This document shows positions 3,002-35,834 of a stretch of DNA of 38,912 nucleotides, in pieces. Below the pieces are notes generated by a model. It did not search any database. It was not told where the DNA came from and saw only the letters and a list, made by a program, of their open reading frames with translations. The position numbers were made by a program, and so were the translations under genes. Origin of the DNA: Geobacter sp. (GTDB lineage: Bacteria > Myxococcota_A > UBA9160 > JADFDR01); assembly GCA_018262735.1 (NCBI GenBank), contig JADFDR010000003.1:1-38912 (forward strand). Direction: 5' to 3'. How positions within the stretch are numbered: the first letter of the stretch is position 1; every line of letters starts with the position of its first letter.

Positions 3002-3111
3002 AGAGCCTCTGGTCAATCCCGCTTTATCAATGCGAGTTTCTTTTCCACCGACGGAAAACAGCAGCACCGGTTTGCAACAATGCTTGAAGAATAAAATGGA
3101 TCCGAGGTTCC
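3002..3111 (+). mobile_element. MITE-like ~110-bp repeat, copy A
   Basis: AGAGCCTCTGGTCAAT...CACCGACGGAAAACA...ATGGATCCGAGGTTCC; aligns end to end with five other copies; starts immediately after the TAA at 2999-3001. Confidence 0.8.
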
Positions 3112-3233
3112 TTCCATTGCTCGCATGCATTCTTGCGCGAACGCAGCTTCTTCAAGATGCGTGTCGCCTGCCGGAGCAACAACGCGACGATCTCCGACAA
3201 TCCTGCGCTCGAAGAAACATCGGAAAAACAAAG

Positions 3234-5516
3234 GTGCGAGCATTACTCTTTTTTGTGTTGGCTTCTTTGAGCGCACTGGGTTGCGCTTCCAAAACGACCA
3301 TCCCTCTCTATGCACCGCTCGCTCCCGCGCCCTTGCGTTCCGCGCGCATGCCCGACGAAGCCGACTTTGCCGCGCGCGATCTGCTCTCCGTCGCACTGCT
3401 GGAAGATCGTACGCGTGCCGCAGAGGCACTGGCAAAATTGCGCGAAACGACCCTCCAAAGCACAAACCCGGAAGACAACACAAAATTCGGTATACCCCTC
3501 GTAGCGTATGCACAAAATCTCGTCGATTCGATGCAAGAAAATCCGCGCGCCTATCGAAATGCATCGCGCACTCTGTTGAAACAAAAAAAATTACCCAAGT
3601 CTCTTCGCACGCGTCTCGAGTATGAAGTCGAAGATGATCCCATGCTGCTTAGCAAGGCGCGATTGCGCGACGATCATCAAGCTTCTTTCGGGCAAGTTTT
3701 CAACATGATCGCCGTACCGGCGGGACGCAGCATGATGTCGGCCAGCACACCCATCGTGGGTTTTGTGCGCTCCTTCATCGAGTGGAGCGCAAGCCGGCAT
3801 CTCACCGACGACTTCTCGATCTACGAACGTCAGGCTCTGCACTACTGGGAAGAAGAATTGCGTCGCGAGCCTGATTCGGAAGACGCTCCCGAGCTTACGC
3901 GAAAAGTCGAAATTGCAAACACAAAATTGCGTAATACGCGACGCGACCAAGAACTTCGCAAAGCACGACGCGCGCTCCGCCAAGGCGATCCACGGCTCGC
4001 CTTGGCATTTTCGGAATCGGCATTGCGCAACACTCCGGAAGATTCCAAAGCGCGACGGCTCGGCGAAAAAGCATTGCAGCAAATCGAAACGCAAGACGCT
4101 GCACGCGCGCGAAGTCTGGAAGCACCCCAAAATCTGACCTTGTCGGATCCCACCGAACTGCAACTCGCAGTCGCGCTGCTGGGTTCGGCCTCGGACACCG
4201 ATGTTCGCATCGCGCAAGTGCTCACCGACGATCCCAAAGGCCCATGGGCGGACGAAGCGCGATTTGCTCTCGCGATGCGCAAAATGGAACAACACGAGGA
4301 TGTTTCGAGCTGGAAAATTTTGCAGGAAGCGAAGAAACGCCGACACCGGCATGAAAACATGACTCTCCACGCCAAGACGCTGCTTCACGATCCCGCGCAA
4401 AACCCTCTTGCCATGTTTCAATCAACACGAAAAAGTGACGGATGGTTTCGAACGCGCTGGATTCTCTTTGGTCCGCTCGCGCGCGGCGCACGTGATCGCG
4501 ATTTGCCGCGCACTCTCGAATGGATACTCGACGCGCCTTATTTCATCGATGTCCTCGTCGGCATGCCCGAACGCATCGTGCGTTATCCCTGGCTTTCGCC
4601 CTGGCCGTTTGGACGCGCGCCTTCCTATTTCGCAAATCAGTATCTCGCCCGTTACTCCGACGGAAAAGCAATCGAGGACGTCGAAGAATGGCTTGAGGAC
4701 TATGAAAAACAACGCGGCAACTGGATCGGCGCACATGAAATGGCAAGTCGCCATACACCTGAAGGTGTAGAACCGTCCAAGCAACTGCTGCGGCTTGAGA
4801 AAAAAGCCGCCGAACAAGCCCTTGCCTCCGCAACCCAACAAACGCGCCTCGAAGTACGCATTCCGATGCTGCAAGAAATCGTACGTCGCTATCCAAAAAC
4901 CGAAGCAAGCCGCAAAGCAGGATTGCAGGTCCGCGCCGAAGTTCTCGAGCTCGCACCGCAAGCCATCCGCGTTTCGCGCGGCTTCCTCGAAGAAAACCCC
5001 GAACTCGCAGGCCCCAACGGTCTTGGTCTTCGCCCCGAACTTCTCGACGGGAATCCCGACAATGGCGAGTTGCATCCCCGCGGCGTCACCTTCGAAGGGG
5101 GTAACACTCTTGCGGTTCACTATTTGAACGAACGAGGCAAAAAGAAAGAAGCGCCTGTAACCGTTCGTCAGCAAATTTCTGCCGAACGACTTGCAGAGAT
5201 CGTGGCGCGTCTCGAAGAACGATCCCTCGCACTGACTCTGCTCGATCGCGATTACGAGCATCTTCCCGATGCACAGCGCGATCTCTTCTTTGAGCGTGCA
5301 CGCCTTGGTGTTGCGGAAGAAAAAGCTCCCCGGCATGCGGCGCGCTCGACTTTTGCCTTTCTCGGAATGCGCGAAAAATATGGCCTCGTGCGCGGGCGCG
5401 AATCGATCCTGCCGATTGAACTCGTCTTGCAAAGCTCGGCGAGCGACTTGAGCCTCGGCGCATTCCCTCGCATCAAAGAGCCAAAGAAGACTCCCGACTC
5501 CATTTTCTTTGAATAA
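3234..5516 (+). CDS. Large hypothetical lipoprotein with TPR-like helical region
   Basis: GTG at 3234 gives MRALLFFVLASLSALGC (lipoprotein signal). The longer ORF-track start at 2982 simply reads through repeat copy A. Confidence 0.75.
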   Translation: MRALLFFVLASLSALGCASKTTIPLYAPLAPAPLRSARMPDEADFAARDLLSVALLEDRTRAAEALAKLRETTLQSTNPEDNTKFGIPLVAYAQNLVDSMQENPRAYRNASRTLLKQKKLPKSLRTRLEYEVEDDPMLLSKARLRDDHQASFGQVFNMIAVPAGRSMMSASTPIVGFVRSFIEWSASRHLTDDFSIYERQALHYWEEELRREPDSEDAPELTRKVEIANTKLRNTRRDQELRKARRALRQGDPRLALAFSESALRNTPEDSKARRLGEKALQQIETQDAARARSLEAPQNLTLSDPTELQLAVALLGSASDTDVRIAQVLTDDPKGPWADEARFALAMRKMEQHEDVSSWKILQEAKKRRHRHENMTLHAKTLLHDPAQNPLAMFQSTRKSDGWFRTRWILFGPLARGARDRDLPRTLEWILDAPYFIDVLVGMPERIVRYPWLSPWPFGRAPSYFANQYLARYSDGKAIEDVEEWLEDYEKQRGNWIGAHEMASRHTPEGVEPSKQLLRLEKKAAEQALASATQQTRLEVRIPMLQEIVRRYPKTEASRKAGLQVRAEVLELAPQAIRVSRGFLEENPELAGPNGLGLRPELLDGNPDNGELHPRGVTFEGGNTLAVHYLNERGKKKEAPVTVRQQISAERLAEIVARLEERSLALTLLDRDYEHLPDAQRDLFFERARLGVAEEKAPRHAARSTFAFLGMREKYGLVRGRESILPIELVLQSSASDLSLGAFPRIKEPKKTPDSIFFE

Positions 5517-5819
5517 CAAATATTTGAGTCAATCCATTGCGTCGCGGTGCGTCATGCAACGCGCAGCGAAATGCAAGCCGATTCCGAAAAAGGAAGATCC
5601 TGGCCCACAAAAAAGTCAACACCGGGATGGCTTCACCCGATATGCTGCCCAAACCCAAAAATCGTGTTTCAGGTGCGCAGACAGTTGGGCAGGATTTTTC
5701 TGTCCCGTCGAGCTGTGTACTTCACAACTGAACCCATCCCGTTTTTCCTCGGATCGCGCAGCTTCGCTCGGATGGGTCCTAAAGAAAGAAACCTTTTTCA
5801 TTCCTTTGGAGGGCAATCC

Positions 5820-6878
5820 ATGTTCAATTCACTTTCTTTTCGATTCGTGTTTTTCGGAATTGCGGTAGCCGCAATGTTGCTTCACGCAACGCCGGCGAAC
5901 GCCGTAGCAACGACGCAAATAAGTGTTACTGGCACTGCCGTAAAAGAAACCACTCTGCAACTTCTCGATGCGAACAACCAAACCGTCCAGGAGGACGAGG
6001 ACAGCAATCACGCCGTCGGTCTTTGGTGGTGGCGGAACATTCCTTCGGGAAGCTACACGCTGCTGATTCAACAACCCGGCAAGGCCGATATCCGCGAGAC
6101 GGTCAAAATCGCCGATGGAAAAACAACGACGATCAGCGTCGACAGCGCAGCGCGCACGGTATCCATCACCGGCGAGCGCGAGCCGGATGCCATCAACACC
6201 CTCGACGACTCGCGATTTGCGGTAGCCCTCCTCGGCGGAGTAAAGCGAACGCCATACGATGCACAGGTGCAATCCAAAATGTGGGGCATCGATGAAGAGG
6301 AGAGCTTAAACGATACGATTGGAATGCTCGGCATCGAAGGACGTTACTACCTGCCAAACTTCGAAGTGTTGCAAGCGTGTCGCGCGCGACTTTTCCTTGC
6401 AGCGATGTACCTGGAATATCTCGGCGGAGGACAAACCAACCGCTTCATCAATGCTCATCCCGGACCCAGCAAGGATACCGGCATGAGCCTCGACGAACAG
6501 CGATCTTTGCGTCTGGCGCTTGGCTCGCAGTTCCTACTCACGCAGCAAGTCATGCTTGCAACACTCGTCGGTGTCCATGCCACCCGCGTCAAGGCACGCA
6601 TGCTCAGCGACGAGAGCGGTGGCGGTGGCCCGCGAAACAGCTTCAGCAAATCCGAAACGGTCTGGGGGCCTTACTTCGCGGTGGATCTCATCTTTCCGCT
6701 CTTGCTGCAACAGCTTTTCCATGTGCCAAATCTCGATCTCTTCGTACGTGCAGAAGCGATGCACATGCGCGACGTCACGGCGAGCGGGAAATCTCCATTC
6801 ACCGGCGCAATTTATCATGGCGAGGCCGAGGGTGGGACCCAGTATGGCGGCGCGATTGGAATCATGAAGCGTTTCTAG
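5820..6878 (+). CDS. Exported protein: N-terminal carboxypeptidase-regulatory/PEGA-like beta domain plus probable outer-membrane beta-barrel
   Basis: GGAGG ribosome-binding site before ATG 5820; signal peptide ending ANA; motif NIPSGSYTLLIQQPG; alternating-hydrophobic strands and a C-terminal Phe (GIMKRF). Confidence 0.7.
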   Translation: MFNSLSFRFVFFGIAVAAMLLHATPANAVATTQISVTGTAVKETTLQLLDANNQTVQEDEDSNHAVGLWWWRNIPSGSYTLLIQQPGKADIRETVKIADGKTTTISVDSAARTVSITGEREPDAINTLDDSRFAVALLGGVKRTPYDAQVQSKMWGIDEEESLNDTIGMLGIEGRYYLPNFEVLQACRARLFLAAMYLEYLGGGQTNRFINAHPGPSKDTGMSLDEQRSLRLALGSQFLLTQQVMLATLVGVHATRVKARMLSDESGGGGPRNSFSKSETVWGPYFAVDLIFPLLLQQLFHVPNLDLFVRAEAMHMRDVTASGKSPFTGAIYHGEAEGGTQYGGAIGIMKRF

Positions 6879-6889
6879 ATGCAACTTCC

Positions 6890-6936
6890 AGGGAGGCATT
6901 TGCACGAGATCCCGCTGCAAATGCCTCCCTTTTTTT
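6890..6936 (+). terminator. Rho-independent terminator
   Basis: Perfect 15-bp stem AGGGAGGCATTTGCA / TGCAAATGCCTCCCT followed by a T run. Confidence 0.85.
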
Positions 6937-7018
6937 ATGCAACACAAAAAAGAGATTCATGATGAAGTCGCTTCCGCGTGTCGCGAAACGATTTCGAAGA
7001 AATTCCGGAGAGAGAAAA

Positions 7019-10000: not shown

Positions 10001-10309
10001 GCCTTCTTCTTAACTGCGACAATTCATAGTGTCATAGCGGCACAACGCGACGGAGCGACGGTCGTCGAGGTAAGTGGTTCGCTGCTTGGCAGCTCACTCG
10101 CGCGTGGCTGGCTCGAACTCGGTGCAGGCGAAACGCCGACCACATGGAAGAAAATCGGCGGAGAAATTCGCGGCAACATCGAGAACGGCGTACTCGGCGC
10201 CATCCCTGCCAGCGAGCTCTCGGGATCGAAAGTCTGGACGATTCGCGCGATCGGGGAGGACAAGAACGGGAAGCGCCGCGAAGCTTGGTTCCGACTCAAC
10301 TTGAGCTAA
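7019..10309 (+). CDS. Secreted S8 (subtilisin-like) serine peptidase with long N-terminal extension
   Basis: GGAGAG ribosome-binding site and signal peptide MRNYILPLLWLLAF...; catalytic motifs VIDSG, GHGTFVTG, AAGN and SGTSFAAP; IDDDGNGYVDD insert; Pro/Gly/Thr linker at ~8240-8505. Confidence 0.9.
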   Translation: MRNYILPLLWLLAFTFLPNGIFVGNVFADDDVTVDMKQSEIPKDNSDLEAIQNFAQQLQSQKCVCPKMDCDAAHRTLQKLADLQGYLEGMLASLRDANDDHMAHFKALAEQGKLTNEQLGRTILALGVQEFLHNMGSALLDIASITSFFNEIAEDPSKLASKKPLEIIENLDKFYEAVKDYESAVTNLSSSLTGQKIEGPVGNLTPDVLGIGKDALNDHKSTISDAISVLKDVHEKGGDVREAFKKPGGPASAIGQIAGRYLKAYSAKQMEERMQYLKDLEGDLAASDLSQAQAFREMQKVQTRRFMAEDTLEAVRAALSSFAACAAKAGCGPYTLVRPQLPNFNTEVPGANGKVKKNWGTALRYYNEALAALRSDLSLPAIEERVPCNPTPIGDKIKIGFDTPVWCNFGGGSTPVPPFGGDDGSTPPPTSGPGDGIGIPTGGGGTPTTPGGTPQIPGGPPTHPGGTGTTTRPPGTTSKPNDDDPRDGDPTTPPPVIVKATKTALATGAQAVAVQGALLKIETPAPALPLAGNTAPDTGFNESPQQGVTGPDGQAKLGSGTPNGVTPVVVGVDLTPQSSMMVTLGGNNPRAALHPDLHQYWKRSFLLNSQTVAVLFYPQEMGQTVARLIRESANVTHSEINYCREKEGTPNDPYLLSKGSWKQNYDDQWGIKRVGFTTDADSAWNSVGEKPASVVVAVIDSGLDWNHKDFAWENIWQNPGEIPDNGIDDDGNGYVDDAIGWDFFHGSNKPWDYDGHGTFVTGIIAATQNNVTGIAGINPHAKIMVLKALNSFGHTRASFIAEAVLYAANHGAQVINLSVGGKNRTRAEEQAISYALSKGIVVVVAAGNEGTDVADFGPASLEGVITVTATDPNDKRAMFANWGSGIDIAAPGVDILSLRGRRTDLMRDLPGTDYQPDSAFVGSDKRYFRASGTSFAAPIVAGTASLLISKNPNLRAEQVKRILLHSAKDIETPGIDQLTGYGLLDAKAALAADPAFFLTATIHSVIAAQRDGATVVEVSGSLLGSSLARGWLELGAGETPTTWKKIGGEIRGNIENGVLGAIPASELSGSKVWTIRAIGEDKNGKRREAWFRLNLS

Positions 10310-10408
10310 GAAGTCTCCGACTCATGAATGCGCATTGATTTGTCACCGACGGAAAACATCCGTATAACTTGCAAAAAAGTCCGTTCATGGAATGGCTCGG
10401 AAGCTTCT
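10309..10408 (+). mobile_element. MITE-like repeat, copy B (internally shortened)
   Basis: AGAAGTCTCCGACTCAT...CACCGACGGAAAACATC...ATGGCTCGGAAGCTTCT; abuts the peptidase TAA. Confidence 0.7.
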
Positions 10409-10462
10409 TGACGGCCCGATCTTCGATACGCGACATAAAAAAGTGTCGAACGATTTTGCATA

Positions 10463-10573
10463 GGAAGACTCTGATTCATTCCACTTTATGAATGTTGACT
10501 GATTTCCCACCGATGGAAAGCCTCAACCCTGGTTTGTGAGAGTGCTCAAAAAATGGAATTGATCAGAGGTTCC
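10463..10573 (+). mobile_element. MITE-like repeat, copy C
   Basis: GGAAGACTCTGATTCATTCCA...CACCGATGGAAAGC...TGGAATTGATCAGAGGTTCC; ~20-bp imperfect terminal inverted repeats. Confidence 0.8.
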
Positions 10574-10625
10574 ATCGAGCCAAAGTGGGTTCACAAAACG
10601 CAACTTCCGTCTTGGCAAGGAAGGA

Positions 10626-11963
10626 TTATTCCTGGCGTGAGTACGCTTCGGCAAGAATTTCGATGGGGTGCAAAGTGCGTATCGAAAGCCCACGTTGCGC
10701 AAAACCGGCACGAAACTGCAAGAGGCAGCCCGGATTCCCCGTTACGACGACATCGGGATTTGCCCTTTCGATCGACGCAAGTTTGCGTCGCCAAACGGCA
10801 TCGGCCATTTCGGGATGTGTAAGATTATAAATTCCCGCAGCACCACAACAGGCTGCAGCGTCTTCTTGCTCGACGAGTTGCAAACCGGGAATTTGCCGAA
10901 GGAGCGCACGTGGCGCATCGACAACGCGTTGGCCGTGAAACAAGTGACATGAATCGTCGTAGCAAACGCGAAGCCTCATTTCGCGGCTTGGTTTTTCGAT
11001 ACCCTGTGCGTACAAAAACTCCGAAATATCGCGTATCGAATGCGCAAGCCAACTCCAGGACTCTCGCTGCCTCGGCGATGCCGTCGAACCCTCTCCGTCG
11101 TCGCAAAGCCAATTTTCACAATCGCGCAGCGCCGCCCCGCACCCCGCCGAATCGACGATGACATACTCCACTTGGGCATCGCGAAACGCGCGCACGTTTT
11201 GCTCCAAAAGCTCGCGCGCAGTTTCAAGATCTCCCGAATGCGCGTGCAACGCTCCACAACACACTTGGGTGTCTGGCACAATCACTTCGAAACCGTTCTG
11301 CGCCAACACATGAAGACTCGCACGCTGCACCGAACCAAAAAATTCAGGCAAAACGCAGCCCACGAAATAACCCACCCGCGCTCGCCGCTTTCCGCGAGCA
11401 ACAAACGAAGTGGCAAGAGGAGCACGCAAACGGGGCGGTGCGATCGGCGGTAGAAAATCGATCCGTCGTTGCCAACGCGACGGAAGCAACAGACGCAACG
11501 CAGCAAGAACGCGAAAGCGTTGCAGTCCGTGCAAAACATTCACGACAAAACGCAAGCGACGACGATTCGGAACGATCTTCTGCAACACAAAAATTTCGAT
11601 TCTCTTTGCAATGCCCTGATGAAGGCCACGCCCTCTTGCTTCCGCGCGCATCGTCTCAAGCAGATCTTCAAAGCGCACTCCCGACGGACATGCCGTTTCG
11701 CAAGCACGACAGCCCAAACAAAGATCCATCGCCTCCAAAACAAGCTCGGAAAATTCAATGCGATTCTCCACGACGCCGCGCATCAAGTAAATGCGTCCGC
11801 GTGGCGATGCGATTTCATTTCCCGTTTCTCGATAAGTTGGACACGTTGGCAGGCAAAGGCCGCAGTGAACACAATCAAGTGTTAACTGCGAAATTTTTTT
11901 CATTCGCGCAGGATCGCTTCCATGACACGCAAAACCGTCGCAAGAGTTTCCGCCCGCTCGCAT
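10626..11963 (-). CDS. glcF: Glycolate oxidase iron-sulfur subunit
   Basis: Two 4Fe-4S motifs (CVHCGLCLPTCP, CLGCRACETACP) and two CCG domains; follows glcD/glcE. Start at 11963 (coupled to the glcE stop) or 11903. Confidence 0.85.
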   Translation of the reverse strand: MRAGGNSCDGFACHGSDPARMKKISQLTLDCVHCGLCLPTCPTYRETGNEIASPRGRIYLMRGVVENRIEFSELVLEAMDLCLGCRACETACPSGVRFEDLLETMRAEARGRGLHQGIAKRIEIFVLQKIVPNRRRLRFVVNVLHGLQRFRVLAALRLLLPSRWQRRIDFLPPIAPPRLRAPLATSFVARGKRRARVGYFVGCVLPEFFGSVQRASLHVLAQNGFEVIVPDTQVCCGALHAHSGDLETARELLEQNVRAFRDAQVEYVIVDSAGCGAALRDCENWLCDDGEGSTASPRQRESWSWLAHSIRDISEFLYAQGIEKPSREMRLRVCYDDSCHLFHGQRVVDAPRALLRQIPGLQLVEQEDAAACCGAAGIYNLTHPEMADAVWRRKLASIERANPDVVVTGNPGCLLQFRAGFAQRGLSIRTLHPIEILAEAYSRQE

Positions 11964-13279
11964 CACAGCTTCCCCATACCGCGTCCCGGATTGAGCAAAA
12001 GATGGGGATCCAATTTGCGCTTCAATTCGTGCATGAGATCAAGATTTGGGATTTTATCTCCGTAAACATCGATCTCGCGTTTGCAAACCACAGCGTTCGC
12101 TGCCGGAACTTCTTCCAAAAAAACCGCAGCCGAAGTTTGTTGCGCAAGATCGCAACATTTTTGCCATAGCATGCGCATCGTCTGTGCAGCACTCGCTGCA
12201 TGCATCGGAATCGGGATCCAGGCCCAGAGCAGGGTCGCACCCACGCCGGGACAAATCAAAACTTCCGCATCAAGTGCATGCAACGCCTTTCGCAAAGAAC
12301 ACAATTTTGAGTTGGAAGCTGCGAAACGAACTCGTACCCGATCCGCTGCGCAGCCCGTCGAGCGAGCGCTACGCATTCTTCCCGCCGCCGTCGCATCCAT
12401 TTCCTGGATCGAAGCCATTCCTCGCAGCCAACTTGTATCCGCCTCGATATTTTCAACGTCTCCCGCAAACCCAACACCGAGTACGGCATCGGCAGTTGCG
12501 AGTTCGGGAGAAAATCGCGCGACCAGTGCGCGATCCATTCCCATGACCGAAGCCACCGTCGGTCGACGTGCCAGCGCCAGAGCGAGCGACTCCAGCCCGT
12601 CTTCCGCCGCAACGAGAAAAGAAATCGCGGCTTCGGCTTTCGGTCGCAATCGCAACCAGCTACGTGTCATCACGCCAAGAGAACCGCAAGATCCAACGTA
12701 GAGTTTGTTGAGATCGTAACCCGTGACATTTTTTACAACGCGCCCACCGCAACGCACTGCGCCACCATCGGCCAAAACCAAATCGAGACCGAGAACGCAA
12801 TGCTTCGGAAATCCCGATCGTAACCAGCTTGCTCCACTCCATGCTAACGCCAGAGTTCCTCCGACACTACTTTGCGTCGATGCAGCTTCAAGCGGAAGCT
12901 CCCATCCTTCGCGCTGCACAATTTCTTGCAGTTCCGCCACGCGCATTCCCGCACCAGCTTGCACAACACCCTCTTCGGGTTCAAAAACGTGCAACTGCGC
13001 AAGGCGTGTCGTCGAAAGCAGCACCGCATCGCCCCGCAACAAATTTCCTTGCGTAAGACGCGTTGCATTCCCTGCAACGAGCGACGGAATTCGATTTGCG
13101 TGAAGCACAGACATCGCCTCGCAAAGCGCACTCTCGTCTTCGGGATACAAAACCCATTTCGGCGCCATACCCTCGACAAAAGGTGAAGCAGACATCATCT
13201 CGATCGACGGTGACAAACTCGCAAGACAGTTCTCGAGCCGACTCAAAAAGGAAATCTCGAATTGCGCTTCGTGTTGCAT
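11963..13279 (-). CDS. glcE: Glycolate oxidase FAD-binding subunit
   Basis: Motif GGRVVKNVTGYDLNKLYVGSCGSLG; C-terminal LKRKLDPHLLLNPGR; GGGGAAG ribosome-binding site before ATG 13279. Confidence 0.8.
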   Translation of the reverse strand: MQHEAQFEISFLSRLENCLASLSPSIEMMSASPFVEGMAPKWVLYPEDESALCEAMSVLHANRIPSLVAGNATRLTQGNLLRGDAVLLSTTRLAQLHVFEPEEGVVQAGAGMRVAELQEIVQREGWELPLEAASTQSSVGGTLALAWSGASWLRSGFPKHCVLGLDLVLADGGAVRCGGRVVKNVTGYDLNKLYVGSCGSLGVMTRSWLRLRPKAEAAISFLVAAEDGLESLALALARRPTVASVMGMDRALVARFSPELATADAVLGVGFAGDVENIEADTSWLRGMASIQEMDATAAGRMRSARSTGCAADRVRVRFAASNSKLCSLRKALHALDAEVLICPGVGATLLWAWIPIPMHAASAAQTMRMLWQKCCDLAQQTSAAVFLEEVPAANAVVCKREIDVYGDKIPNLDLMHELKRKLDPHLLLNPGRGMGKL

Positions 13280-13378
13280 TGCTTCCCCGCTTTGTACTAC
13301 GTACTTTCGCGAACACTCTCCGCCAAGGAACGGTGCGCATCCTCTTGTCGCGCGCATCTTCCTGCCTAACGCATCTGC

Positions 13379-14809
13379 CTATCGCAAATGCGGATTCGAC
13401 TCGACACAAGATCGTGTTGACGGCAGAACCTTCGATGGATTGCAAAGCTTTGCAGGATCGAACACTGCACGCACAGCTTCCATCGTCGCAAGATCTCGAT
13501 CCGAAAAAAGAAGCCGCAAAAACTCGCGCTTCTCATGCCCAATGCCATGCTCGCCACTGATACTTCCCCCGACCGCTACGCAGTAACGTAAAATTTCCTC
13601 TCCTGCGGCGAGCACACGCTGCAATTCGTCGGCATTACGCCGATCGAAAGAAATGTTCGGATGCAAATTCCCGTCACCTGCATGAAATACATTGGAAAGT
13701 GTCAGACGATAGCGGTCGCCAATCTCGCAAACTTTCTTCAATACCTCTGGCAATTTCGTACGCGGCACCACGGCATCGTGCACATAAACATCCGGCGCAA
13801 TGCGGCCCATGGCGCCAAACGCGCTTTTTCGGGCGCGCCAAAATCCCAGTCGCTCTTGAGCATCACGCGCCACGGAAACATTTCGGGCACCGCTTGCCTG
13901 CATCAACACTTGAATGCGTTGAACATGACGTGCCAGACTCGGCGCCGGGCCATCGAGTTCGACCAAGAGCACGGCGCCGGCGTCCGTCGGAAGTCCGCCC
14001 GAATAAACGCTTGCTTCAATTGCGCAAATCGTGCGTTGATCCATGATTTCCAGGGCAGAGGGCACAATGCCGGATCGAAGGATCCGCGTCACGGCATCGC
14101 ACGCCGTGACCAACTCCTCAAAGACCACAAGCAAAGTTTCGACTTGTTCCGGCCGCTCGGTGAAACGCACGACCGCCTGCGTGATGACGCCAAGCGTTCC
14201 CTCGCTCCCCGTCAGCAAACCCGCAAGATCAAATCCACTCGCAAACCCCGACGGAGAACCGAACCGACGCAGTGTGCCATCGGGCAAAACTACTTCGAGT
14301 GCGAGTACGTGCTCGGTCGTCGCGCCATACTTAAAAGTGTGTGGACCTCCCGAATTTTCAGCGATGTTGCCTCCGATGCTGCATGCGAGCTGACTCGACG
14401 GATCAGGCGCAAAGAACAATCCATGCGAAGCGACGGCCTTCGACAAATCAGCATTGATGACGCCGGGTTCGATCACGGCGTATCGATCCTCCACATTTAC
14501 ATCCAGGATTCGATTCATCCTCGAGCACTCGAGGATCACTGCACCGTCGGCGGGAAGCGCACCGCCAGAAAGTCCTGTGCCAGCTCCTCGCGGAACGAAG
14601 GGAACGCCCCAGGCGCCACATAGTTTCACGATGGAAACCACTTGTTCGCAATTTTCGGGAAGCACCACAGCACTCGGCATGCCTGCGTGAACAGCAAGCG
14701 CATCGCACTCATAGGGCAAAAGCTGTTCGGGCTCGAGCAACAGACAATCTCTCGCCACGATTTGACGCAAAGCCTCGACAAACGCAAATTTGTGTCGACT
14801 CACGTGCAT
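13379..14809 (-). CDS. glcD: Glycolate oxidase FAD-linked subunit
   Basis: Motifs PRGAGTGLSGGA, PDPSSQLACSIGGN, HAGDGNLHP and SGEHGIG. Confidence 0.9.
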   Translation of the reverse strand: MHVSRHKFAFVEALRQIVARDCLLLEPEQLLPYECDALAVHAGMPSAVVLPENCEQVVSIVKLCGAWGVPFVPRGAGTGLSGGALPADGAVILECSRMNRILDVNVEDRYAVIEPGVINADLSKAVASHGLFFAPDPSSQLACSIGGNIAENSGGPHTFKYGATTEHVLALEVVLPDGTLRRFGSPSGFASGFDLAGLLTGSEGTLGVITQAVVRFTERPEQVETLLVVFEELVTACDAVTRILRSGIVPSALEIMDQRTICAIEASVYSGGLPTDAGAVLLVELDGPAPSLARHVQRIQVLMQASGARNVSVARDAQERLGFWRARKSAFGAMGRIAPDVYVHDAVVPRTKLPEVLKKVCEIGDRYRLTLSNVFHAGDGNLHPNISFDRRNADELQRVLAAGEEILRYCVAVGGSISGEHGIGHEKREFLRLLFSDRDLATMEAVRAVFDPAKLCNPSKVLPSTRSCVESNPHLR

Positions 14810-14834
14810 CGGTTCACCCAAATCCAAAACTGAA

Positions 14835-14943
14835 GGAGCTTCTGATCAATTCCATTTTTCGAGTTTTTCACAAACCATGACTGATGTTTCCCGTCGGTGA
14901 AAAACCAACTCGCATGGACAAAGCGAGATGGATCAGAAGCTCC
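14835..14943 (-). mobile_element. MITE-like repeat, copy D
   Basis: Perfect 14-bp inverted repeat AGGAGCTTCTGATC (14834-14847) / GATCAGAAGCTCCT (14931-14944) around the core TGTTTCCCGTCGGTG. Confidence 0.85.
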
Positions 14944-15128
14944 TCAAATCAAAACGCAAAATCGGTTCTACTCAAAAGCCAAGAGGCCAAACGCATTGAA
15001 AGGGATTCTCTCTCAAAACGATCGGCCAATTTGTAGGAAAAACCTCGAAGAAGTGTCACGATACGCGCGCAAAGCGTGCTTCTCTCCTGCGCCGCACGCG
15101 ACTTCACGCTCGGAGGGAACCTTGCGAA

Positions 15129-17547: not shown

Positions 17548-17624
17548 TGGTGGGCCCTCCAGGGATTGAACCTGGGACTGTCCGGTTATGAGCCGGATGC
17601 TCTGACCGACTGAGCTAAGGGCCC
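17548..17624 (-). tRNA. ileX: tRNA-Ile2 (CAT anticodon, lysidine-modified type), CCA encoded
   Basis: GGGCCCTTAGCTCAGTCGGTCAGAGCATCCGGCTCATAACCGGACAGTCCCAGGTTCAATCCCTGGAGGGCCCACCA folds as a cloverleaf. The acceptor stem and its position downstream of rpoD favour Ile2 over Met. Confidence 0.88.
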
Positions 17625-19311: not shown

Positions 19312-19422
19312 AGAAATTTCGAATCCATTCCGTTTTTCGAGCCTTTTCGCAAACCAAATCTGATGTTTTCCGTCGGTGAAAAATCAACCCGCATTCATCA
19401 AGCGAAAGCAATCAGAACCTCC
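19312..19422 (-). mobile_element. MITE-like repeat, copy E
   Basis: Plus-strand TGATGTTTTCCGTCGGTGAAAAATCAAC core with degenerate terminal repeats; aligns with copies D and F. Confidence 0.8.
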
Positions 19423-19447: not shown

Positions 19448-19493
19448 CAAAGCGGCTCGCCTCGAAAGACCTCCGAAGCGAGCCGCTTTGTTT
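19448..19493. terminator. Stem-loop / probable bidirectional terminator between convergent genes
   Basis: 13-bp stem CAAAGCGGCTCGC / GCGAGCCGCTTTG, about 17 nt past the rpoD stop. Confidence 0.65.
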
Positions 19494-19507
19494 CCAACGA
19501 CCGTACT

Positions 19508-21364: not shown

Positions 21365-21466
21365 GCGCTTCCCCCTTCATGACACAATCGTGATTCAATC
21401 GTTCTCCGCCTCACCACCCCAATGGCGAGAGCGTCCTGCCAAATCTCGGAACGCACGTTTCTCGAA

Positions 21467-23239: not shown

Positions 23240-23259
23240 ATCCGGCCAAGCCTCCGTGC

Positions 23260-23457: not shown

Positions 23458-23689
23458 CCTCGAACACTCCTTGCTTGAACGGCACAAAAAGCAAACCGAA
23501 GTTCAACCAACTCTTGCAAATCGACTCGGCTTGGAAAGCGATTTTTCCGGCGGCCCTGCACCGCGGGAGCCGCATGCTAGCGAAGCGATCTTCGACGATC
23601 AACTCGCATTGACCTCCGAACCAGGAACGTCTTGGAAGCCCAAATCCAAAATCAAAACGGGATGCGATCACCAATTTGGTCCGCTCGCT

Positions 23690-26500: not shown

Positions 26501-26524
26501 GGAATCTCGCCCGAACTTTCTTGC

Positions 26525-27121: not shown

Positions 27122-27126
27122 CCTAT

Positions 27127-28503: not shown

Positions 28504-28505
28504 CG

Positions 28506-29765: not shown

Positions 29766-29853
29766 GTTTCACTACTTTCCGAATGAGGTGATTTTCGTTT
29801 TCGAGGTAATCGCAGCGCTTCTCGTCAAATCCCCTTCGGGAAGCGCATCTAGC

Positions 29854-30891: not shown

Positions 30892-31964
30892 AGATTTGCC
30901 TTCTTGCGTGCCTCGGCTGCGAAATGGCTCGCAACTCCGCCCAAAAGTTCGTCGAGATCTCCGGCCATGCAATTTTCAAGTGAATGCAACGTAACGCCAG
31001 CGCGGTGATCCGTGACACGAGATTGTGGAAAGTTGTAGGTGCGAATTCGCTCGCTGCGATCGCCGGTCCCCACTTGTGAGCGCCGCTCACTCGCACGCTC
31101 TGCATCGGCGCGTGCCTGTTCGGCTTCGAGAAGGCGTGAGCGCAAGACGCGCAGCGCCTTGGCCTTGTTCTTGTGCTGTGATTTTTCGTCTTGGCACTGC
31201 ACTTCGACGCCCGTCGGTAGATGTTTGATCCGCACGGCCGAATCTGTGGTATTGACGCTCTGCCCGCCTGGCCCCGAGGCGCGAAACACATCAATGCGTA
31301 GGTCTTCGGGCTTGATTTCAATATCCACTTCTTCGGCTTCCGGCAAAACCGCCACCGTCACCGTCGAAGTATGGATGCGCCCCTGCGCCTCGGTCGCGGG
31401 AACGCGCTGTACGCGGTGCACACCACGCTCGTACTTCATCTGACCAAACACGCCGCTGCCTTTGATCGAAAGAATCGCTTCTTTGGTCCCGCCGGCGTCG
31501 GCGTCGCTCAAAGAGAGAAGCTCTGTGCGCCAACCTTTGCGTTCGGCGTAGCGCGTGTACATGCGCAAAAGTTCGCCCGCGAAAAGCGCTGCTTCTTCAC
31601 CGCCCGCACCGGCGCGAATTTCAAGAATGACATCGCGCGCGTCCGTCGGATCTTTGGGAATCAGGAGCAGTTCGATTTGCACTTCGAGCGCTTCGCACTC
31701 GGTCGTAAGACGCTGCATCTCGGCCTTGGCGAGCTCACGAAGCTCGGCATCCGATTCGCCAAGCATGGCTTTCGCGCCCTCGAGTTCGTGAATCAAAACC
31801 CGATACCGCTGCGTCGCATCGAGAATTGGGCGCAATTCGGCGAGATTTCTCCCAATTTTCGCAAAGTCTGCCGAACCACCGGCAAGCGAAGGATCGGCAA
31901 GTTGCTCTTCGAGCGCGCGCGCACGCGCTTCAATTTCGGCAAGGCGTTCGAGCAGAATCGACAT
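30888..31964 (-). CDS. prfA: Peptide chain release factor 1
   Basis: GGQ motif (SGPGGQSVN), RF1-type PAT tripeptide (RVPATE) and IRTYNFPQ. Confidence 0.98.
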
Positions 31965-32044
31965 CGGTCATCTCACTCCGGCGCAGGTCCAGAGTCGGAA
32001 AATCTCGAGGCAGGAAGAGAACGTCGAGGCAGAGGTCGCCGCGC

Positions 32045-32245
32045 TTACTTCTTCGTGTAGCGGCGCTTGAACTTCTCCACCTTACCGGCCGTATCAATCA
32101 GCTTTTGTTTGCCGGTGAAAAACGGATGGCAAGAGGAACAAATTTCGACGCGAATTTCCGGCAGTGTGGAACGAGTCTCCCACTGCTGACCGCATGCACA
32201 GTGAACCTGCACGGTTTGATATTGAGGATGAATTTCAGGCTTCAT
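32045..32245 (-). CDS. rpmE: 50S ribosomal protein L31 (zinc-binding C+ type)
   Basis: MKPEIHPQY...CACG...[13 protein letters not shown]. Confidence 0.97.
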
Positions 32246-32315
32246 AATTGGGGCCTTCTAATAGCCTACTCGCTCCGGTTCGACAAGCTCGAAATCCGGA
32301 CGGCGGAGCAAACGG

Positions 32316-33764
32316 TTAAGAGTTCATCGACTTCAAAAAGTCTTCGTTGTTTTCTGTAGCCTTGATCTTCTCGAGCAAAAATTCCATGGAGTCGACCGGG
32401 TTGAGCGGCGCAAGCACCTTGCGCAGGATGTACATGCGGCTGAGCGTATTTTCACCAAGAAGCAGATCTTCTCGGCGCGTCGCCGATTTGCTGATGTCGA
32501 TCGCCGGATAAGTACGGCGCTCGGCAAGCTTGCGGTCGAGCACGATTTCCGAATTGCCCGTACCTTTGAACTCTTCGAAGATCACTTCGTCCATTCGCGA
32601 TCCGGTATCAATCAGCGCCGTACCCACGATCGTAAGGCTGCCGCCCTCTTCCACGTTTCGCGCGGCACCAAAGAAGCGCTTCGGTTTGTGGAGTGCGTTC
32701 GAATCGACGCCGCCCGAAAGAATTTTTCCTGAGTGCGGCACCACCGTGTTGTAGGCGCGCGCAAGTCGCGTGATCGAGTCGAGCAAGATCACGACATCGC
32801 GCTTGTGCTCGACGAGCCGCTTCGCTTTTTCGATCACCATCTCCGCCACTTGAACGTGTCGGGCGGCCGGCTCATCGAACGTCGACGAAATCACTTCCGC
32901 CTTCACGGTGCGCAGCATATCCGTCACTTCTTCGGGTCGCTCGTCGATCAACAACACGATCAAGAACACTTCCGGATGCGCAGTGCTGATCGCATTCGCA
33001 ATGTCTTTCAAGAGCATGGTCTTGCCGGCCTTCGGCGGCGACGGAATCAGCGCACGCTGGCCTTTGCCGATCGGCGCCACCAAGTCGATGATCCGCGTCG
33101 TGAGTCCCGCACCCTTGTAAGCCAGGTTAAACTTTTCCTGCGGATAGAGCGGCGTGAGATTGTCGAAGAAAATTTTACGTCGGCTTGCAAGCGGTGACTC
33201 AAAATTGATTGAACCGACTTTCAACAACGCAAAATAACGCTCGCCTTCTTTCGGAGAACGAATCTGTCCCTGAACGGTGTCACCCGTACGTAAACCAAAA
33301 CGTCGAATCTGCGACGGAGAAACATAAACATCATCGGGGCCGGGCAAATAATTTTGATCCGGCGCGCGCAAGAATCCAAATCCATCCGGCAAACATTCGA
33401 GCACGCCGTCGGCATAAACACGTTCGTCACCTTCGCTCTTGGCTTTGAGCACATTGAAAATCAAATCTTGCTTGCGCATCCCCGTTGCGCCTTCAATGTT
33501 GAAGCGCTCGGCGAGTTCCGTCAGTTCTTCCATCGACTTGTTTTTGAGATCGCGGACATACACGCGCTTGCTCGGATCGGATTCCTCTTCGGTATCGATT
33601 TCTTCGTCGGAAATGTCATACATCTCCGGCCCACGATCCTGGCGGCCCATATTGCCACCGCGTCCACCACCACTACGGCGACGCCCGCCATTGCGACGAT
33701 TGCCTCGATTCATCGAGTTGTCGTTCGAGTCGCTTCCTCTTCTGGGGCTCAAATTTTTCCTCAC
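32316..33764 (-). CDS. rho: Transcription termination factor Rho
   Basis: Motifs [36 protein letters not shown] and FEEFKGTGN. The start may be TTG 33752 (GAGGA upstream) or ATG 33713. Confidence 0.98.
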
Positions 33765-34131
33765 TTCCTACATTTGGACTTTGTGTCATTACACATGAAA
33801 AAGATTTTTCAAAAATTGAATCGGCAGAGATTGGCCGTGCCGCGCGTTCGATTCGCTACAGAACGAAATACGGGGATGAGTAAGTCGGGAATACCCTTTT
33901 TGCTCGGACCAACGGTCCTTTTCATTGACCTTAAAAATGCTGCGCGAAATAAAATCTCGAATACGCCGGGACCGGCTACGAACAAATTCCTCGGAAAAAC
34001 TTTTTCTCCTGCAGCGCGCTCAATGCCTTACGGATCACGATGACCGACGAAGGAGCAAATTCGCGATGGGAGTCGTGCCCGAGAAAATCAAACCGGCACG
34101 AGTCCTAACCTATGCGGAGTCGAGCATCGTG

Positions 34132-34803
34132 TCAAGTCTCGTTCGCAGCTGCGATGAAATGCACAAGACGTCCTGTGCCTGCACCATCGCGACGATAGGA
34201 ATAAAATCGTGTCGGATTGCACGCCGTGCATGCGTCGGAAATTCGACCGATGCATTGCCGATCAAGTCCAAAACGCGAGAGTTCTTGCACTGCAAGAAGT
34301 CCCAAATCAAGCTGCACATGCTCGGAACGAGATGCATCACGCATATGCACAGCAGCTTGCCAATCCGGAAACCGCTTCCGCATCGCATCGAGCACCGGTG
34401 TATCGACCTCGTAGCAACACGGACCAATGTGTGGACCGATCACCGCACGCAACTTGTTTGCGTCCACTCCAAGATCCGAAAATGCATGCAGGGTTTGCTC
34501 CATCACACCGGCGGCAAGTCCACGCCATCCCGCATGCGCCGCAGCCACCACTTTCCCCGACACATCTGCAAACAACACAGGAACACAATCTGCTGTCACA
34601 ATACCAATACAAACACCAGGAAGTGTTGAAAGGATCGCGTCCGCTTCTCCCGCATTTTGTGCAGCTCGGTCGATGATGGCGACGCGCGTTCCGTGCACTT
34701 GCCGAGGGCGTAACAACCCGGACACTTCCTTCGCGGCAATCGTCCCAAAGCCATGCAAAACATGGACTTCCGTCAAAAGATCATGTGTCAAAAAACCTTT
34801 CAC
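34132..34803 (-). CDS. pgeF: Purine nucleoside phosphorylase / peptidoglycan editing factor (YfiH)
   Basis: Motifs QVHG, TADCVPV, AHAGWRG, IGPHIGPCCYEV and FYSYRR; coupled to rluD. Confidence 0.93.
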   Translation of the reverse strand: MKGFLTHDLLTEVHVLHGFGTIAAKEVSGLLRPRQVHGTRVAIIDRAAQNAGEADAILSTLPGVCIGIVTADCVPVLFADVSGKVVAAAHAGWRGLAAGVMEQTLHAFSDLGVDANKLRAVIGPHIGPCCYEVDTPVLDAMRKRFPDWQAAVHMRDASRSEHVQLDLGLLAVQELSRFGLDRQCIGRISDACTACNPTRFYSYRRDGAGTGRLVHFIAAANET

Positions 34804-35723
34804 GGCTGCTCTGCTCCATTCAACGTATCGAGCAACGTTTGAAAATCTTGGGGAACAGAAGCTTCAAACCTTTTTCGCTCGCCTGTACGTGGATGCACGA
34901 AACCCAGCACTTTGGCGTGCAATGCGGGCCGTGCGAGCAGTGCTCGTTTCGCATTGGTACGGCCATACACCGTATCTCCGACGAGCGGCAAGCCTGCCGA
35001 TGCAAGATGCACGCGAATTTGATGCGTACGACCCGTTTGCGGATACACCTCGAGCAACGTAATTCCACTTTGCGGAAAACGTCGCTTCACCTTCCAGCGC
35101 GTGTGCGCTGCACGGCCTGCACGCGTGCGCACCGACATTTTTTTGCGATCACGGAGATGTCGTCCGATCGGTCGATCGACTTCGCCCGTATCTTCTTTGG
35201 GTACACCACGCACGAGTGCCCAGTACATGCGATCGATCGAATGCAAGCGAAATTGCTCTGACAAAAATTGGTGTACATCGTCGCTTTTTGCCACGACAAG
35301 TACGCCGGATGTACCTCGATCAAGGCGATGCACGATCCCGGGCCGTTGCCCGCCACCGACAGCGGATAGGCTTTCTCCACAATGATGCAAAAGCGCGTTC
35401 ACGAGCGTACCCTGCGCATGACCCGGTGCAGGATGCACCACGATTCCCGCCGGCTTGTCGAGAACGATTAAATCCTCATCTTCATATAAGACTTGCAACG
35501 GAGTCGCTTCGGCTTTCACAGTCGAAGGTTCTTCTGCGACACGCTCCACTTGTACAATATCTCCGGAACACACGCGCTTGCTCACGCGCGCACGCTCACC
35601 GTTCAACAAAACTTGCCCGCTTTCGATCCAACGCTGCACCTGTGCACGCGGCGCCTGCAAAAACGATGCACATACGGCATCCAGACGCTGACCTTCTTCG
35701 TTTTGCGTAATCAAATGTTGCAT
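34800..35723 (-). CDS. rluD: RluA-family 23S rRNA pseudouridine synthase (RluD)
   Basis: S4 domain (QRLD), KPAGIVVHP, IVHRLDRGTSG and TGRTHQIRVH. ATG 35723 preferred because the ORF-track extension lies inside repeat copy F. Confidence 0.93.
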   Translation of the reverse strand: MQHLITQNEEGQRLDAVCASFLQAPRAQVQRWIESGQVLLNGERARVSKRVCSGDIVQVERVAEEPSTVKAEATPLQVLYEDEDLIVLDKPAGIVVHPAPGHAQGTLVNALLHHCGESLSAVGGGQRPGIVHRLDRGTSGVLVVAKSDDVHQFLSEQFRLHSIDRMYWALVRGVPKEDTGEVDRPIGRHLRDRKKMSVRTRAGRAAHTRWKVKRRFPQSGITLLEVYPQTGRTHQIRVHLASAGLPLVGDTVYGRTNAKRALLARPALHAKVLGFVHPRTGERKRFEASVPQDFQTLLDTLNGAEQP

Positions 35724-35725
35724 GA

Positions 35726-35834
35726 GGTTCCTCGGATTCATTCGCTTTCGAAATGCAACTTGATTTTTCACCGACGGAAAACATCAAACCTGGTTCGCGA
35801 AAATACTCGAAAAATGGAATGGACTAGAGGTTCC
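35726..35834 (+). mobile_element. MITE-like repeat, copy F
   Basis: GGTTCCTCGGATTCATTCGC...TGATTTTTCACCGACGGAAAACATCA...TGGAATGGACTAGAGGTTCC. Confidence 0.85.

Follow-up and report, generated by a model that had tools for sequence, protein, structure and literature searches.

A dense family of 110-bp intergenic elements, very probably IS5-group MITEs, in a Myxococcota_A genome

Six copies of a short repeated element lie in the window, a stretch of 38,912 nucleotides of contig JADFDR010000003.1 from an assembly named Geobacter sp. (GTDB lineage Myxococcota_A). With borders counted from the initial G of GGAGCC, copy 1 occupies positions 3002..3111 on the plus strand, is full length and is flanked by GTAA (2998-3001) on the left and TTCC on the right, the left flank holding the TAA stop of the ORF at 2012..3001. 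The corresponding site is empty in G001, a sister genome of the same genus, where the orthologous gene terminates in CTAA. Copy 2 (10310..10408, plus strand) has lost about 10 nt of its left terminal repeat; it adjoins the TAA stop (10307-10309, within CTAA) of a subtilase-like ORF and is missing from the syntenic G001 site. Copy 3 (10464..10573, plus strand) is full length, with flanks ATAG and ATCG that match at 3 of 4 positions. On the minus strand, the full-length copy 4 (14835..14943; minus-strand flanks TTGA and TTCA) ends 7 nt upstream of a TTG start, that of a GlcD-like ORF (13379..14827, minus strand), and the full-length copy 5 (19313..19422) sits between convergent genes within an exact 4-bp direct duplication, TGAG/TGAG; copy 5 is also missing from its syntenic site in G001. 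Copy 6 (35726..35834, plus strand, full length, flanks ATGA and ATAA) has its left end 2 nt from the ATG of an RluD-like gene on the minus strand, and the spacer at this locus measures 184 nt here and 72 nt in G001, a difference of 112. All six copies fall between the best ORFs, whose genes were named via Pfam, and the sole ORF overlap in the window arises where the longest-ORF extension of the RluD-like gene enters copy 6. The window also contains a tRNA at 17551-17624, its sole Rfam match at gathering score.

Three approaches agree on these positions. A repeat search of the window recovered the six copies independently, as direct and inverted families; alignment with MAFFT gave 73% mean column identity with unalignable flanks; and an nhmmer model built from the six copies matched 3003-3111 (+), 10311-10407 (+), 10466-10573 (+), 14835-14943 (-), 19313-19421 (-) and 35729-35834 (+), with no seventh copy anywhere in the window. 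An earlier, sequence-only reading had described six intergenic copies in both orientations, and its placements were right within a few bases.

The consensus is 109-110 nt long (median genome match 104 nt), which leaves no room for an ORF and so no coding capacity. Its first and last 19 nt, GGAGCCTCGGATCCATTCC and GGAATGGATCCGAGGCTCC, are perfect reverse complements, so that the element is bounded by a 19-bp terminal inverted repeat (GGAGCCTCKGATYCATTCC) and has the ends GGAG...CTCC; terminal repeats of about this length had been proposed from the window. Each arm is conserved at 59-94% per position. Allowing up to 3 mismatches, the terminal 19-mer occurs 235 times in the host assembly (1.97 Mb, 74.6% complete), compared with 0 occurrences of the reversed control and 0 in the 94% complete G001.

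Across the host assembly the six-copy model gave 286 matches and a second-round model 373, which reduce to 297 separate places, 156 on the plus and 141 on the minus strand, covering 29.4 kb; 183 of these copies are full length. The expectation of hundreds of copies per genome is therefore borne out, at a density of 151 copies per Mb and 1.5% of the assembled DNA. Given the 297 distinct copies and the 235 terminal 19-mers versus none in the control, the window sequences and the genome-wide family are not a product of chance. Identity to the consensus has a median of 80% and identity between nearest neighbours a maximum of 95%, in line with the suggestion that the family is old. There are 24 near-full pairs of neighbouring copies no more than 16 nt apart, of which 12 share an orientation and 12 point in opposite directions; members of such pairs are no more alike than random pairs (0.74 versus 0.735), and many have one YTAR in common.

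The sequence-only reading held that target-site duplications were not recognisable, and this did not survive the genome-wide comparison. The profile of full copies, in a set that still contained reverse-strand duplicates, reads Y-T-A-R directly at both ends. In the de-duplicated set the flanking 4-mers are identical in 35 of 182 full copies, against 5.9 +/- 2.3 in 5000 shuffles (maximum 16), and reverse-complement matches number 9 against 5.6 expected. Direct 4-bp YTAR duplications are thus statistically clear. An exact duplication is kept in just these 35 copies and YTAR on both sides in 19 of 182; decay and the genome's word bias explain only part of the frequent non-YTAR flanks (TTCG, CGAA, TTCA, TGAA). 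In an earlier set that had not been de-duplicated, exact duplications were found in 9 of 81 copies in the best-scoring third and in 22 of 82 in each of the other thirds.

The positions of the copies relative to genes rest on the calls of a rough in-house ORF caller. All but two of the 297 copies are intergenic, convergent genes enclose 104 of them and divergent genes 20, and the element is very often found on a TAA or TAG stop codon: in 88 of 363 flanks facing a gene's 3' end, the last base of the stop touches the element. Orientation shows no bias (62 copies in the same and 80 in the opposite direction relative to the upstream gene, 57 and 54 relative to the downstream gene). The host genome itself is extremely poor in TA and in YTAR, the latter being depleted 11-16-fold.

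The family appears to be confined to this lineage. The model matched none of 40 relatives, and at 10 syntenic loci examined in G001 all 14 copies are missing, which supplies the empty orthologous sites that had been sought. On one host contig (C44) the arrangement CTAG-MITE-CTAA corresponds to a single CTAA in G001, and CTAA-MITE-CTAA-MITE-CTAA corresponds to one stop codon.

An IS5-family transposase with the same ends had also been sought, the lack of any IS with such ends having been named among the signs that would refute the reading, and four were found, all in metagenomes. The exact 19-nt end is present at 79 metagenomic loci, 43 of which have YTAR directly 5' of the match, and four of the 79 (L075, L091, L089 and L141) are insertion sequences of about 1.17 kb with an ORF of 305-343 amino acids just inside the end. 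Their products match PF05598 (DUF772; 1e-15 to 1e-22), PF01609 (DDE_Tnp_1; 1e-26 to 1e-32) and the NCBIfam model NF033581, 'IS5 family transposase', at 299-348 bits (cut-off 140 bits), and are about 54% identical to the transposases of IS1646 and ISXfu2. L089 (about 1165 bp) is flanked by CTAG/CTAG and L091 (about 1165 bp, right end read by eye) by CTAA/CTAA; at a further locus, L071, the flanks are TTAA/TTAA. The same 19-nt end heads unrelated MITEs in Proteobacteria, and in other genomes it stands on MITEs flanked by perfect duplications of CTAG or TTAA. In IS1646, which is annotated as an IS5-group element, the left end starts GGAACCTCTGA, and 10 of its first 11 bases agree with our element. 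The exact end was found on an IS only among metagenomic ISs, and neither on the named ISs examined nor on IS5-group copies of G002, a genome of the same family. The window had been noted to lack a transposase, and none of the IS5 type was found in the whole host assembly (PF01609, PF13340 and NF033581 searched), nor did we find the terminal repeat outside the MITEs in that assembly. This result counts little either way because the assembly is incomplete and multi-copy ISs are often unassembled.

We consider that the copies are very probably non-autonomous elements, 110-bp MITEs that an IS5-group DDE transposase (IS5 family) moved in trans. The MITE layout proposed at the outset is upheld by the terminal repeats, the absence of coding capacity, the 4-bp duplications, the intergenic positions and the empty sites in G001, and the proposed relation to IS5 by directly matching YTAR flanks and by the four IS5-group ISs that carry the same end.

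A transposase that duplicates only the TA within YTAR or NTAN, as in IS630/Tc1-like elements or the IS427-group element IS711, could instead have moved the MITE, in which case each end of the element would extend by one base. IS711 is described as duplicating the TA of a YTAR target (PMC2266754), and the palindromic flanks CTAG and TTAA fit the TA and 4-bp models equally well. Two full-length relatives, L141 and one copy of IS1646 (plasmid NZ_CP018463.1), have a left flank TTAG and a right flank CTAA, which is not a direct 4-bp repeat and is what TA duplication predicts for ends G...C. The TA model predicts no left-right match of the outer Y and inner R, but such a match is seen both at the first flank base (C/C 45, T/T 65, C/T 18, T/C 10; Fisher p = 2e-12) and at the fourth (A/A 49, G/G 67, A/G 21, G/A 18; p = 9e-10). 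Among non-palindromic double-YTAR pairs, nine are direct (CTAA/CTAA 3, TTAG/TTAG 6) versus one TTAG/CTAA; L071 and L091 require a 4-bp repeat; and the transposases on these ends are of the IS5 group (DUF772 plus DDE_Tnp_1, NF033581), not of the DUF4096 type and not IS630. We therefore regard duplication of TA alone as very unlikely.

The centre of the element presents a different picture from its ends, a contrast that the sequence-only reading had missed. The CCGACGG(AAA) core is 85-99% conserved, compared with 76-78% for the repeat ends, and is exact in 170 of 195 copies that were found without using it, a pattern not predicted by a pure model in which the ends are all that matter to a MITE. 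The core word is also the commonest 10-mer both in the rest of the host genome and in the MITE-free G001. Set against a DNA uptake sequence or Chi-like signal, which should be a sharply delimited 8-12-mer in enormous excess, with strand skew for Chi, the word is over-represented (193 observed against 53 expected under an order-5 Markov model) and genus-specific; it exceeds the next unrelated word in count by a factor of just 1.7, its flanking extension is weak and it has no per-contig skew (p = 0.39). The exactness of the core and its rank as commonest 10-mer, together with the clustering of copies at gene ends, would suit an intergenic repeat maintained by the host, for instance a REP/BIME-like element or an array of regulatory or protein-binding sites, spread or kept for a cellular function and not a transposon relic. 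Against it stand the direct target duplications, the empty sites in the sister genome, ends identical to those of transposase-bearing ISs, the lack of orientation bias and terminal stems that decay without compensation, and we give this explanation only a very slim chance. REP sequences are described as being 20-40 nt (PMC3733652), unlike our element in size and layout. Membership of the class of REP/BIME elements with a RAYT transposase was rejected: these would be 20-40-nt imperfect palindromes headed by GTAG or CGTC and lacking a target duplication, and the element is 110 nt long, has ends GGAG...CTCC and is flanked by duplications.

That the long terminal stem marks structured small-RNA genes or a cis-acting RNA (a terminator or mRNA stabiliser) can practically be dismissed: copies 4 and 2 fold much better than shuffles (z = -4.9 and -3.2) and many copies directly follow stop codons, but for other copies shuffles do as well (z = -0.75, -0.8 and +1.4), and both orientations are equally common. 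No Rfam family was found on the copies at gathering score, RNA-type covariation was nil (the paired fraction equals the shuffle expectation at every repeat position; RNAalifold covariation term -0.32), and a structured RNA family was rejected on the lack of compensatory base-pair changes and of an Rfam match to the element.

Returning to the IS5-group MITE, we propose that an IS5-group transposase would have bound both ends, excised or copied the element, and integrated it at YTAR through a cut staggered by 4 bp. Insertions within genes would be lethal and, because the genome is also poor in TA and YTAR, the targets that could be tolerated would largely be TAA and TAG stop codons; since the duplication restores the stop, such insertions would be nearly neutral. 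The burst would have come after the two sister species diverged; since then the transposase would have been lost, or else it was left unassembled, and the copies would now be decaying. The core may be under a constraint of its own, and our best guess, the weakest step of this scheme, is that a central bend or host-factor site would allow the two ends, only about 110 bp apart, to pair; a similar end-pairing role has been proposed for the IHF site of Correia elements. It is also conceivable, if rather doubtful, that the core CACCGACGGAAAA is a functional DNA word of the genus, a binding or recognition site selected genome-wide in genic and intergenic DNA, and not a leftover of the parent IS. If so, the MITE may have spread by carrying the word, or about 250 copies may have been retained as extra host sites, and a family of transposons would then have ridden on, or been co-opted into, a signal particular to the genus (compare uptake or nucleoid-organising sequences).

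The closest parallel in layout is given by the Correia elements (CREE) of Neisseria, which are likewise short and non-coding, have long terminal inverted repeats, number hundreds of copies in a genome of about 2 Mb, lie mostly between genes near gene ends, and have a link to an IS5-family transposase and a special central site. Correia elements have repeats of about 26 bp, a TA duplication and a central IHF site. The present element differs in its 4-bp YTAR duplication, in its non-Neisseria host and in its conserved centre, a genome-wide over-represented word unlike that of Correia. More than 120 Correia copies are given for N. gonorrhoeae (PMC10969869), and ISfinder enters the element among its MITEs, with a link to the IS5-family IS1106, in keeping with the entry 'IS1106_IS5' among ISfinder MITEs (10.1101/2024.01.18.576219). 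IS5 of E. coli, whose duplications are described as making the motif YTAR (PMC5009759), and IS1646 and ISXfu2 of Xanthomonas have the YTAR target and 4-bp duplication seen here, and IS5-group ends start with GGA as in our element; the MITE differs in having no transposase gene and one tenth of the length of an IS5-group IS. BrickBuilt and MITEPgRS/MITE464 of Porphyromonas gingivalis and ATR of N. meningitidis are also IS5-family-derived MITEs, assigned to their parents via identical or near-identical terminal repeats (PMC4596501), and our own assignment follows the same logic. The repeats of those elements are 11-12 nt long (GAGACC...), their copies number in the tens, and their parents reside in the genome that carries them; here the repeat is 19 nt long, there are about 300 copies, and no parent turned up in the assembly. 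The highest density given in a RefSeq census of MITEs is 123.4 per Mb, or 1.23% of the genome, for all families together (10.1101/2024.01.18.576219), against 151 per Mb and 1.5% for this single family, a rough comparison as the methods differ. The high-density genomes of Wolbachia, Rickettsia and Prochlorothrix resemble this one in a lineage-specific MITE burst that accounts for some 1% of the genome or more.

The element is an additional member of an already known MITE type. Its kind is ordinary; its density and its well-kept central motif are not. For annotation, some 300 intergenic blocks of 110 bp can now be labelled, and the copies, which are also potential recombination sites, probably underlie many of the contig breaks and of the odd 'extended' ORFs seen in this MAG. 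A burst later than the divergence from the sister species would make the family a dated marker. Unrelated MITEs across distant phyla carry one and the same 19-nt IS5-group end, so that many MITE families may have arisen independently from the activity of one clade of transposases. The match between the over-conserved core and the most frequent 10-mer of the genome is a definite anomaly that lends itself to testing. With YTAR so strongly depleted, an IS5-type element would come to rest largely on stop codons that its own duplication repairs, and the family would be a clean natural case in which the target specificity of a transposon and the composition of its host genome jointly decide where it can live.

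The six stretches that the sequence-only reading had taken for copies of a ~110-bp intergenic element, at positions 3002-3111 (+), 10310-10408 (+), 10464-10573 (+), 14835-14943 (-), 19313-19422 (-) and 35726-35834 (+) (copies 1 to 6), are real. They can be aligned end to end with a mean column identity of 73% and have unalignable flanks; a search of the window for direct and inverted repeats recovers the same six, and a profile built from them matches the window in these six places only. All lie between the best ORFs, in a neighbourhood of ordinary core genes (leuA-like, subtilase, GlcDEF-like oxidase, rpoD, dnaG, the his operon, murA-like, prfA, rho and rluD-like). The profile scan of the genome that this reading had proposed gave 286 matches in the assembly that holds the window on contig C167 (G000; 1.97 Mb, 233 contigs, 56% G+C, 74.6% completeness). 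Rebuilding the profile from 172 full copies raised the number to 373, of which 76 were the same copies on the opposite strand, because the element is nearly symmetric. After de-duplication the family comprises 297 distinct places (156 plus, 141 minus) with a median length of 104 nt, totalling 29.4 kb or 1.5% of the assembly. Full-length copies number 183, the 245-246 "full" copies counted before de-duplication having included reverse-strand duplicates, and contig ends truncate seven matches.

The 110-nt consensus has terminal stretches of 19 nt that are perfectly reverse-complementary (GGAGCCTCGGATCCATTCC ... GGAATGGATCCGAGGCTCC); the ends begin GGAGCCTC. Y-T-A-R abuts both ends in the flank profile, whose set still contained reverse-strand duplicates. 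Target-site duplications, earlier held to be unrecognisable, are in fact detectable: 35 of 182 copies have identical 4-mers on both sides, compared with 5.9 +/- 2.3 when partners are shuffled (5000 shuffles, maximum 16), and no comparable excess was found in other registers or lengths of flank match. Reverse-complement identity of the flanking 4-mers is at chance (9 vs 5.6), and left and right 4-mers are concordant at the first base (Fisher p = 2e-12) and at the fourth (p = 9e-10). YTAR stands on both sides of 19 copies, with the non-palindromic pairs CTAA/CTAA in three, TTAG/TTAG in six and TTAG/CTAA in one. The 4-mer identity, the concordance of bases and the direct non-palindromic pairs therefore show that the flanks are a direct target duplication rather than an extension of the inverted repeat.

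A scan of metagenome contigs for the 19-nt end returned 79 loci, with YTAR directly before 43 of the 79 end matches. Four of them (L075, L091, L089 and L141) have an ORF of 305-343 aa whose start lies just inside the end. Each ORF contains DUF772 and DDE_Tnp_1, and against NCBIfam NF033581 "IS5 family transposase", which has a cut-off of 140 bits, they reach 299-348 bits. L089 is ~1165 bp long and flanked by CTAG/CTAG, and L091, whose right end was placed by eye, is ~1165 bp and flanked by CTAA/CTAA. The nearest annotated plasmid relatives are the IS1646 and ISXfu2 transposases, at ~54% identity, and IS1646 starts GGAACCTCTGA. Duplications made by E. coli IS5 follow the YTAR motif (PMC5009759). 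Since the end is shared with transposase-bearing IS5 elements and the target is that of IS5, the element is an IS5-group MITE; the IS5 relationship and YTAR preference suggested from the sequence were correct, as was the interpretation as a whole.

The search for an IS5-family transposase with the same ends thus succeeded at these four metagenomic loci and failed in the source genome: Pfam PF01609 and PF13340 and NCBIfam NF033581 had no match in the assembly, which is 74.6% complete; the absence already noted for the window thus extends to the assembly. Ends outside the MITEs in G000 amount to 11 weak or solo fragments, among which we found no IS, and blastn of an end against the PLSDB plasmids gave no match. 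IS5-group copies in a genome of the same family (G002) were rejected as parents, their ends being related but different (GGAAGGTCTGAAG, GGAGACGCTGAAC).

Two full-length IS5-group elements, L141 and the IS1646 copy L153 (NZ_CP018463.1), are flanked by TTAG at the left end and by CTAA at the right end, unlike a direct 4-bp repeat, and IS711 is reported in PMC2266754 to duplicate the TA of YTAR. Both observations would fit a transposase that duplicates only TA; set beside the concordance of the first and fourth flanking bases in the present family, such a mover for this MITE is highly improbable. The TTAG and CTAA flanks of L141 and L153 are reverse complements of each other, which possibly reflects recombination between copies or another cut geometry in some members.

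The paired fraction at each of the first 20 terminal-stem positions equals the shuffled expectation (in the set before de-duplication), and the arms of the stem therefore mutate independently; RNAalifold assigned almost no covariation energy, and the folding of single copies ranges from z = -4.9 to z = +1.4. Relative to the gene upstream, 62 copies have the same orientation and 80 the opposite one, and relative to the gene downstream the counts are 57 and 54, so neither comparison shows a bias; Rfam at gathering scores matched only a tRNA, not the element. The element is neither an RNA nor a structural repeat. A reverse-strand ECF-type promoter (AAAC-N16-CGTC) was also dropped, as the C of the -35 is only ~50% conserved and there is no downstream orientation bias.

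The MITE that we describe belongs to the known IS5-derived kinds, to which it adds a family: BrickBuilt and MITEPgRS in P. gingivalis and ATR in N. meningitidis are named in PMC4596501, and a preprint (10.1101/2024.01.18.576219) links Correia elements, the closest analogue in look and density, to IS1106. The highest all-family MITE density quoted in the RefSeq census of that preprint is 123.4 per Mb (1.23%); at 151 copies/Mb and 1.5% the present single family exceeds it, the methods of the two counts being different. In the literature that could be searched, we found neither the family nor its end sequence described. The host is tentatively a planctomycete, on weak evidence.

The exact end is found on other MITEs. 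A scan of one genome per species returned 25 stretches against ~17 expected by chance (our own arithmetic), so single matches carry little meaning. Paired or multi-copy matches, however, mark clear MITEs of other sequence with the same end in the Proteobacteria: in Dyella (L035, L042, L044, L047-L049), a Burkholderiales/beta-proteobacterial MAG (L039-L040, L069-L070) and an Aquisalimonadaceae MAG (L051-L057, L063-L072). Unrelated MITE families with this end also occur in soil and sediment metagenomes (many of L074-L152). The MITEs of Dyella and the two MAGs measure 45-355 bp and are flanked by perfect duplications of CTAG or TTAA, and each such genome has 4 to 115 end matches, compared with 0 for the reversed control. 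The perfect duplications belong to young copies, and the 115 matches to one MAG. ORFs beside the ends in these genomes are ordinary genes, and their PF01609 and PF13340 matches lack the end. These results suggest that many MITE families go back to a single IS5-group clade.

With a sequence-only covariance model, for which at most 93-150 candidates were scored per genome, the family was found in none of 40 relatives, the sister genome G001 (same genus, 94% complete) and a genome of the same family among them. With up to 3 mismatches the 19-nt end has 235 occurrences in G000, none in G001 and 4-12 in each of three other relatives. G001 is syntenic with the window, its genes being 73-84% identical in DNA, and we aligned ten loci, of which the window has four, contig C44 three, C161 two and C43 one, and which together contain 14 copies; the element is missing from G001 at all ten. 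The empty orthologous sites that had been sought are precise at three. For copy 1 of the window, the gene in G001 terminates in ...CCC TAA AA (CTAA) and the sequence continues, where G000 has GTAA and then the element; at C44:12796 a single CTAA in G001 corresponds to CTAG-element-CTAA; and at C44:8058-8271 one stop codon corresponds to CTAA-element-CTAA-element-CTAA. The copies are old, as had been supposed: median identity to the consensus is 80%, nearest-neighbour identity has a median of 82% and a maximum of 95%, and divergence is mostly by transitions. Being absent from G001 and old, the copies point to a burst after the split from the G001 lineage that has long ended.

Near-full copies lie within 16 nt of one another in 24 pairs, many with one common YTAR. 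Half of these pairs have the same orientation and half are inverted, and partners are no more alike than random pairs (similarity 0.74 vs 0.735); tandem duplication was rejected on these grounds, and the pairs reflect independent insertions beside a resident copy. Copies 2 and 3 (+) and copy 4 (-) enclose a GlcDEF-like three-gene FAD-oxidase/Fe-S operon (10626-14827, minus), copies and operon together spanning 10310-14943. The whole ~4.8-kb block is absent from the syntenic site in G001, where a ~100-nt spacer with a terminator hairpin stands, and the GlcD-like protein as query had no match in G001. One-step composite transposition of the block is unsupported because the outer flanks mismatch.

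The centre of the element is over-conserved. Among 183 full copies ACCGACGGAAA is 85-99% conserved, both CpGs 96-99%, compared with averages of 76-78% for the terminal repeats and 71% for the remainder. A detection artefact was rejected with two half-profiles lacking the centre: 170 of the 195 copies that they found have an exact CCGACGG, where uniform 20% decay would leave ~21% (our own arithmetic). A small stem around the core showed no compensatory change, and an IHF-consensus match was unconvincing by eye. Our preferred guess is that the core is architectural, a site required for the pairing of ends that lie only ~110 bp from each other.

A bolder reading, that the core is a host-protein site common to the rest of the genome, we consider unlikely. 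The word is abundant outside the MITEs: in MITE-masked G000 the commonest 10-mers are CACCGACGGA (216 occurrences) and CCGACGGAAA (193, against 53 expected under an order-5 Markov model), and the next unrelated 10-mer has 124. Predicted coding DNA contains 173 of the 193 CCGACGGAAA, which use both strands and four of the six frames; flanking extension is weak, and no per-contig strand skew of the Chi/KOPS type was seen. CCGACGGAAA has 214 copies in the 2.5 Mb of MITE-free G001 and 2-64 in the 2.2-6.4 Mb of 39 other relatives. Both words are mostly in genes, equally abundant in G001 and 10-40 times rarer per Mb in the 39 relatives. Abundance in the MITE-free sister implies that the word pre-dates the burst and characterises the genus. 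Codon, dipeptide and CG-rich word bias may be all that lies behind it; it is not obvious, though, how such bias by itself would keep ten positions of the MITE ten-fold better protected than the adjacent ones.

Gene positions were taken from a rough ORF-based caller made for this analysis (1589 genes, 86% coding), by which 295 of the 297 copies are intergenic; convergent gene pairs flank 104 and divergent pairs only 20. Of 363 flanks that face the 3' end of a gene, 88 have the element starting immediately after the stop codon, which is then the TAR of the duplicated YTAR; copies 1 and 2 show this directly in the window. Between copy 5 and the rpoD stop, a G+C-rich hairpin at 19448-19490 (AAAGCGGCTCGC...GCGAGCCGCTTT) looks like an ordinary terminator for convergent genes, outside the MITE.

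At a distance of 4 nt from the tip, each MITE end also has a GAGG that faces outward. The ATG of the RluD-like gene, which has its own, different leader in G001, is only 2 nt from the end of copy 6 (35722-35726), and a TTG of the GlcD-like gene is 7 nt from that of copy 4 (14828-14835); similar proximity is seen at ~10 places genome-wide. The repeats may now be supplying ribosome-binding sites to adjoining genes.

TA is scarce in G000 (observed/expected 0.33) and YTAR words more so (CTAG 0.06, CTAA and TTAG 0.09, TTAA 0.13), and TCGA, TTCG and CGAA are over-represented 2.5-3.1 times. Only 2083 YTAR sites are present in 1.97 Mb: 1074 in coding DNA, 236 at other stop codons, 169 at MITE borders and 604 elsewhere. 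With so few sites, a YTAR-specific element has few harmless targets besides stop codons, where the target duplication would recreate the stop on insertion. We regard three points as being of moderate interest: an IS5-group end common to unrelated MITEs in distant phyla, an over-conserved core, and the targeting of stop codons in a TA-starved genome.
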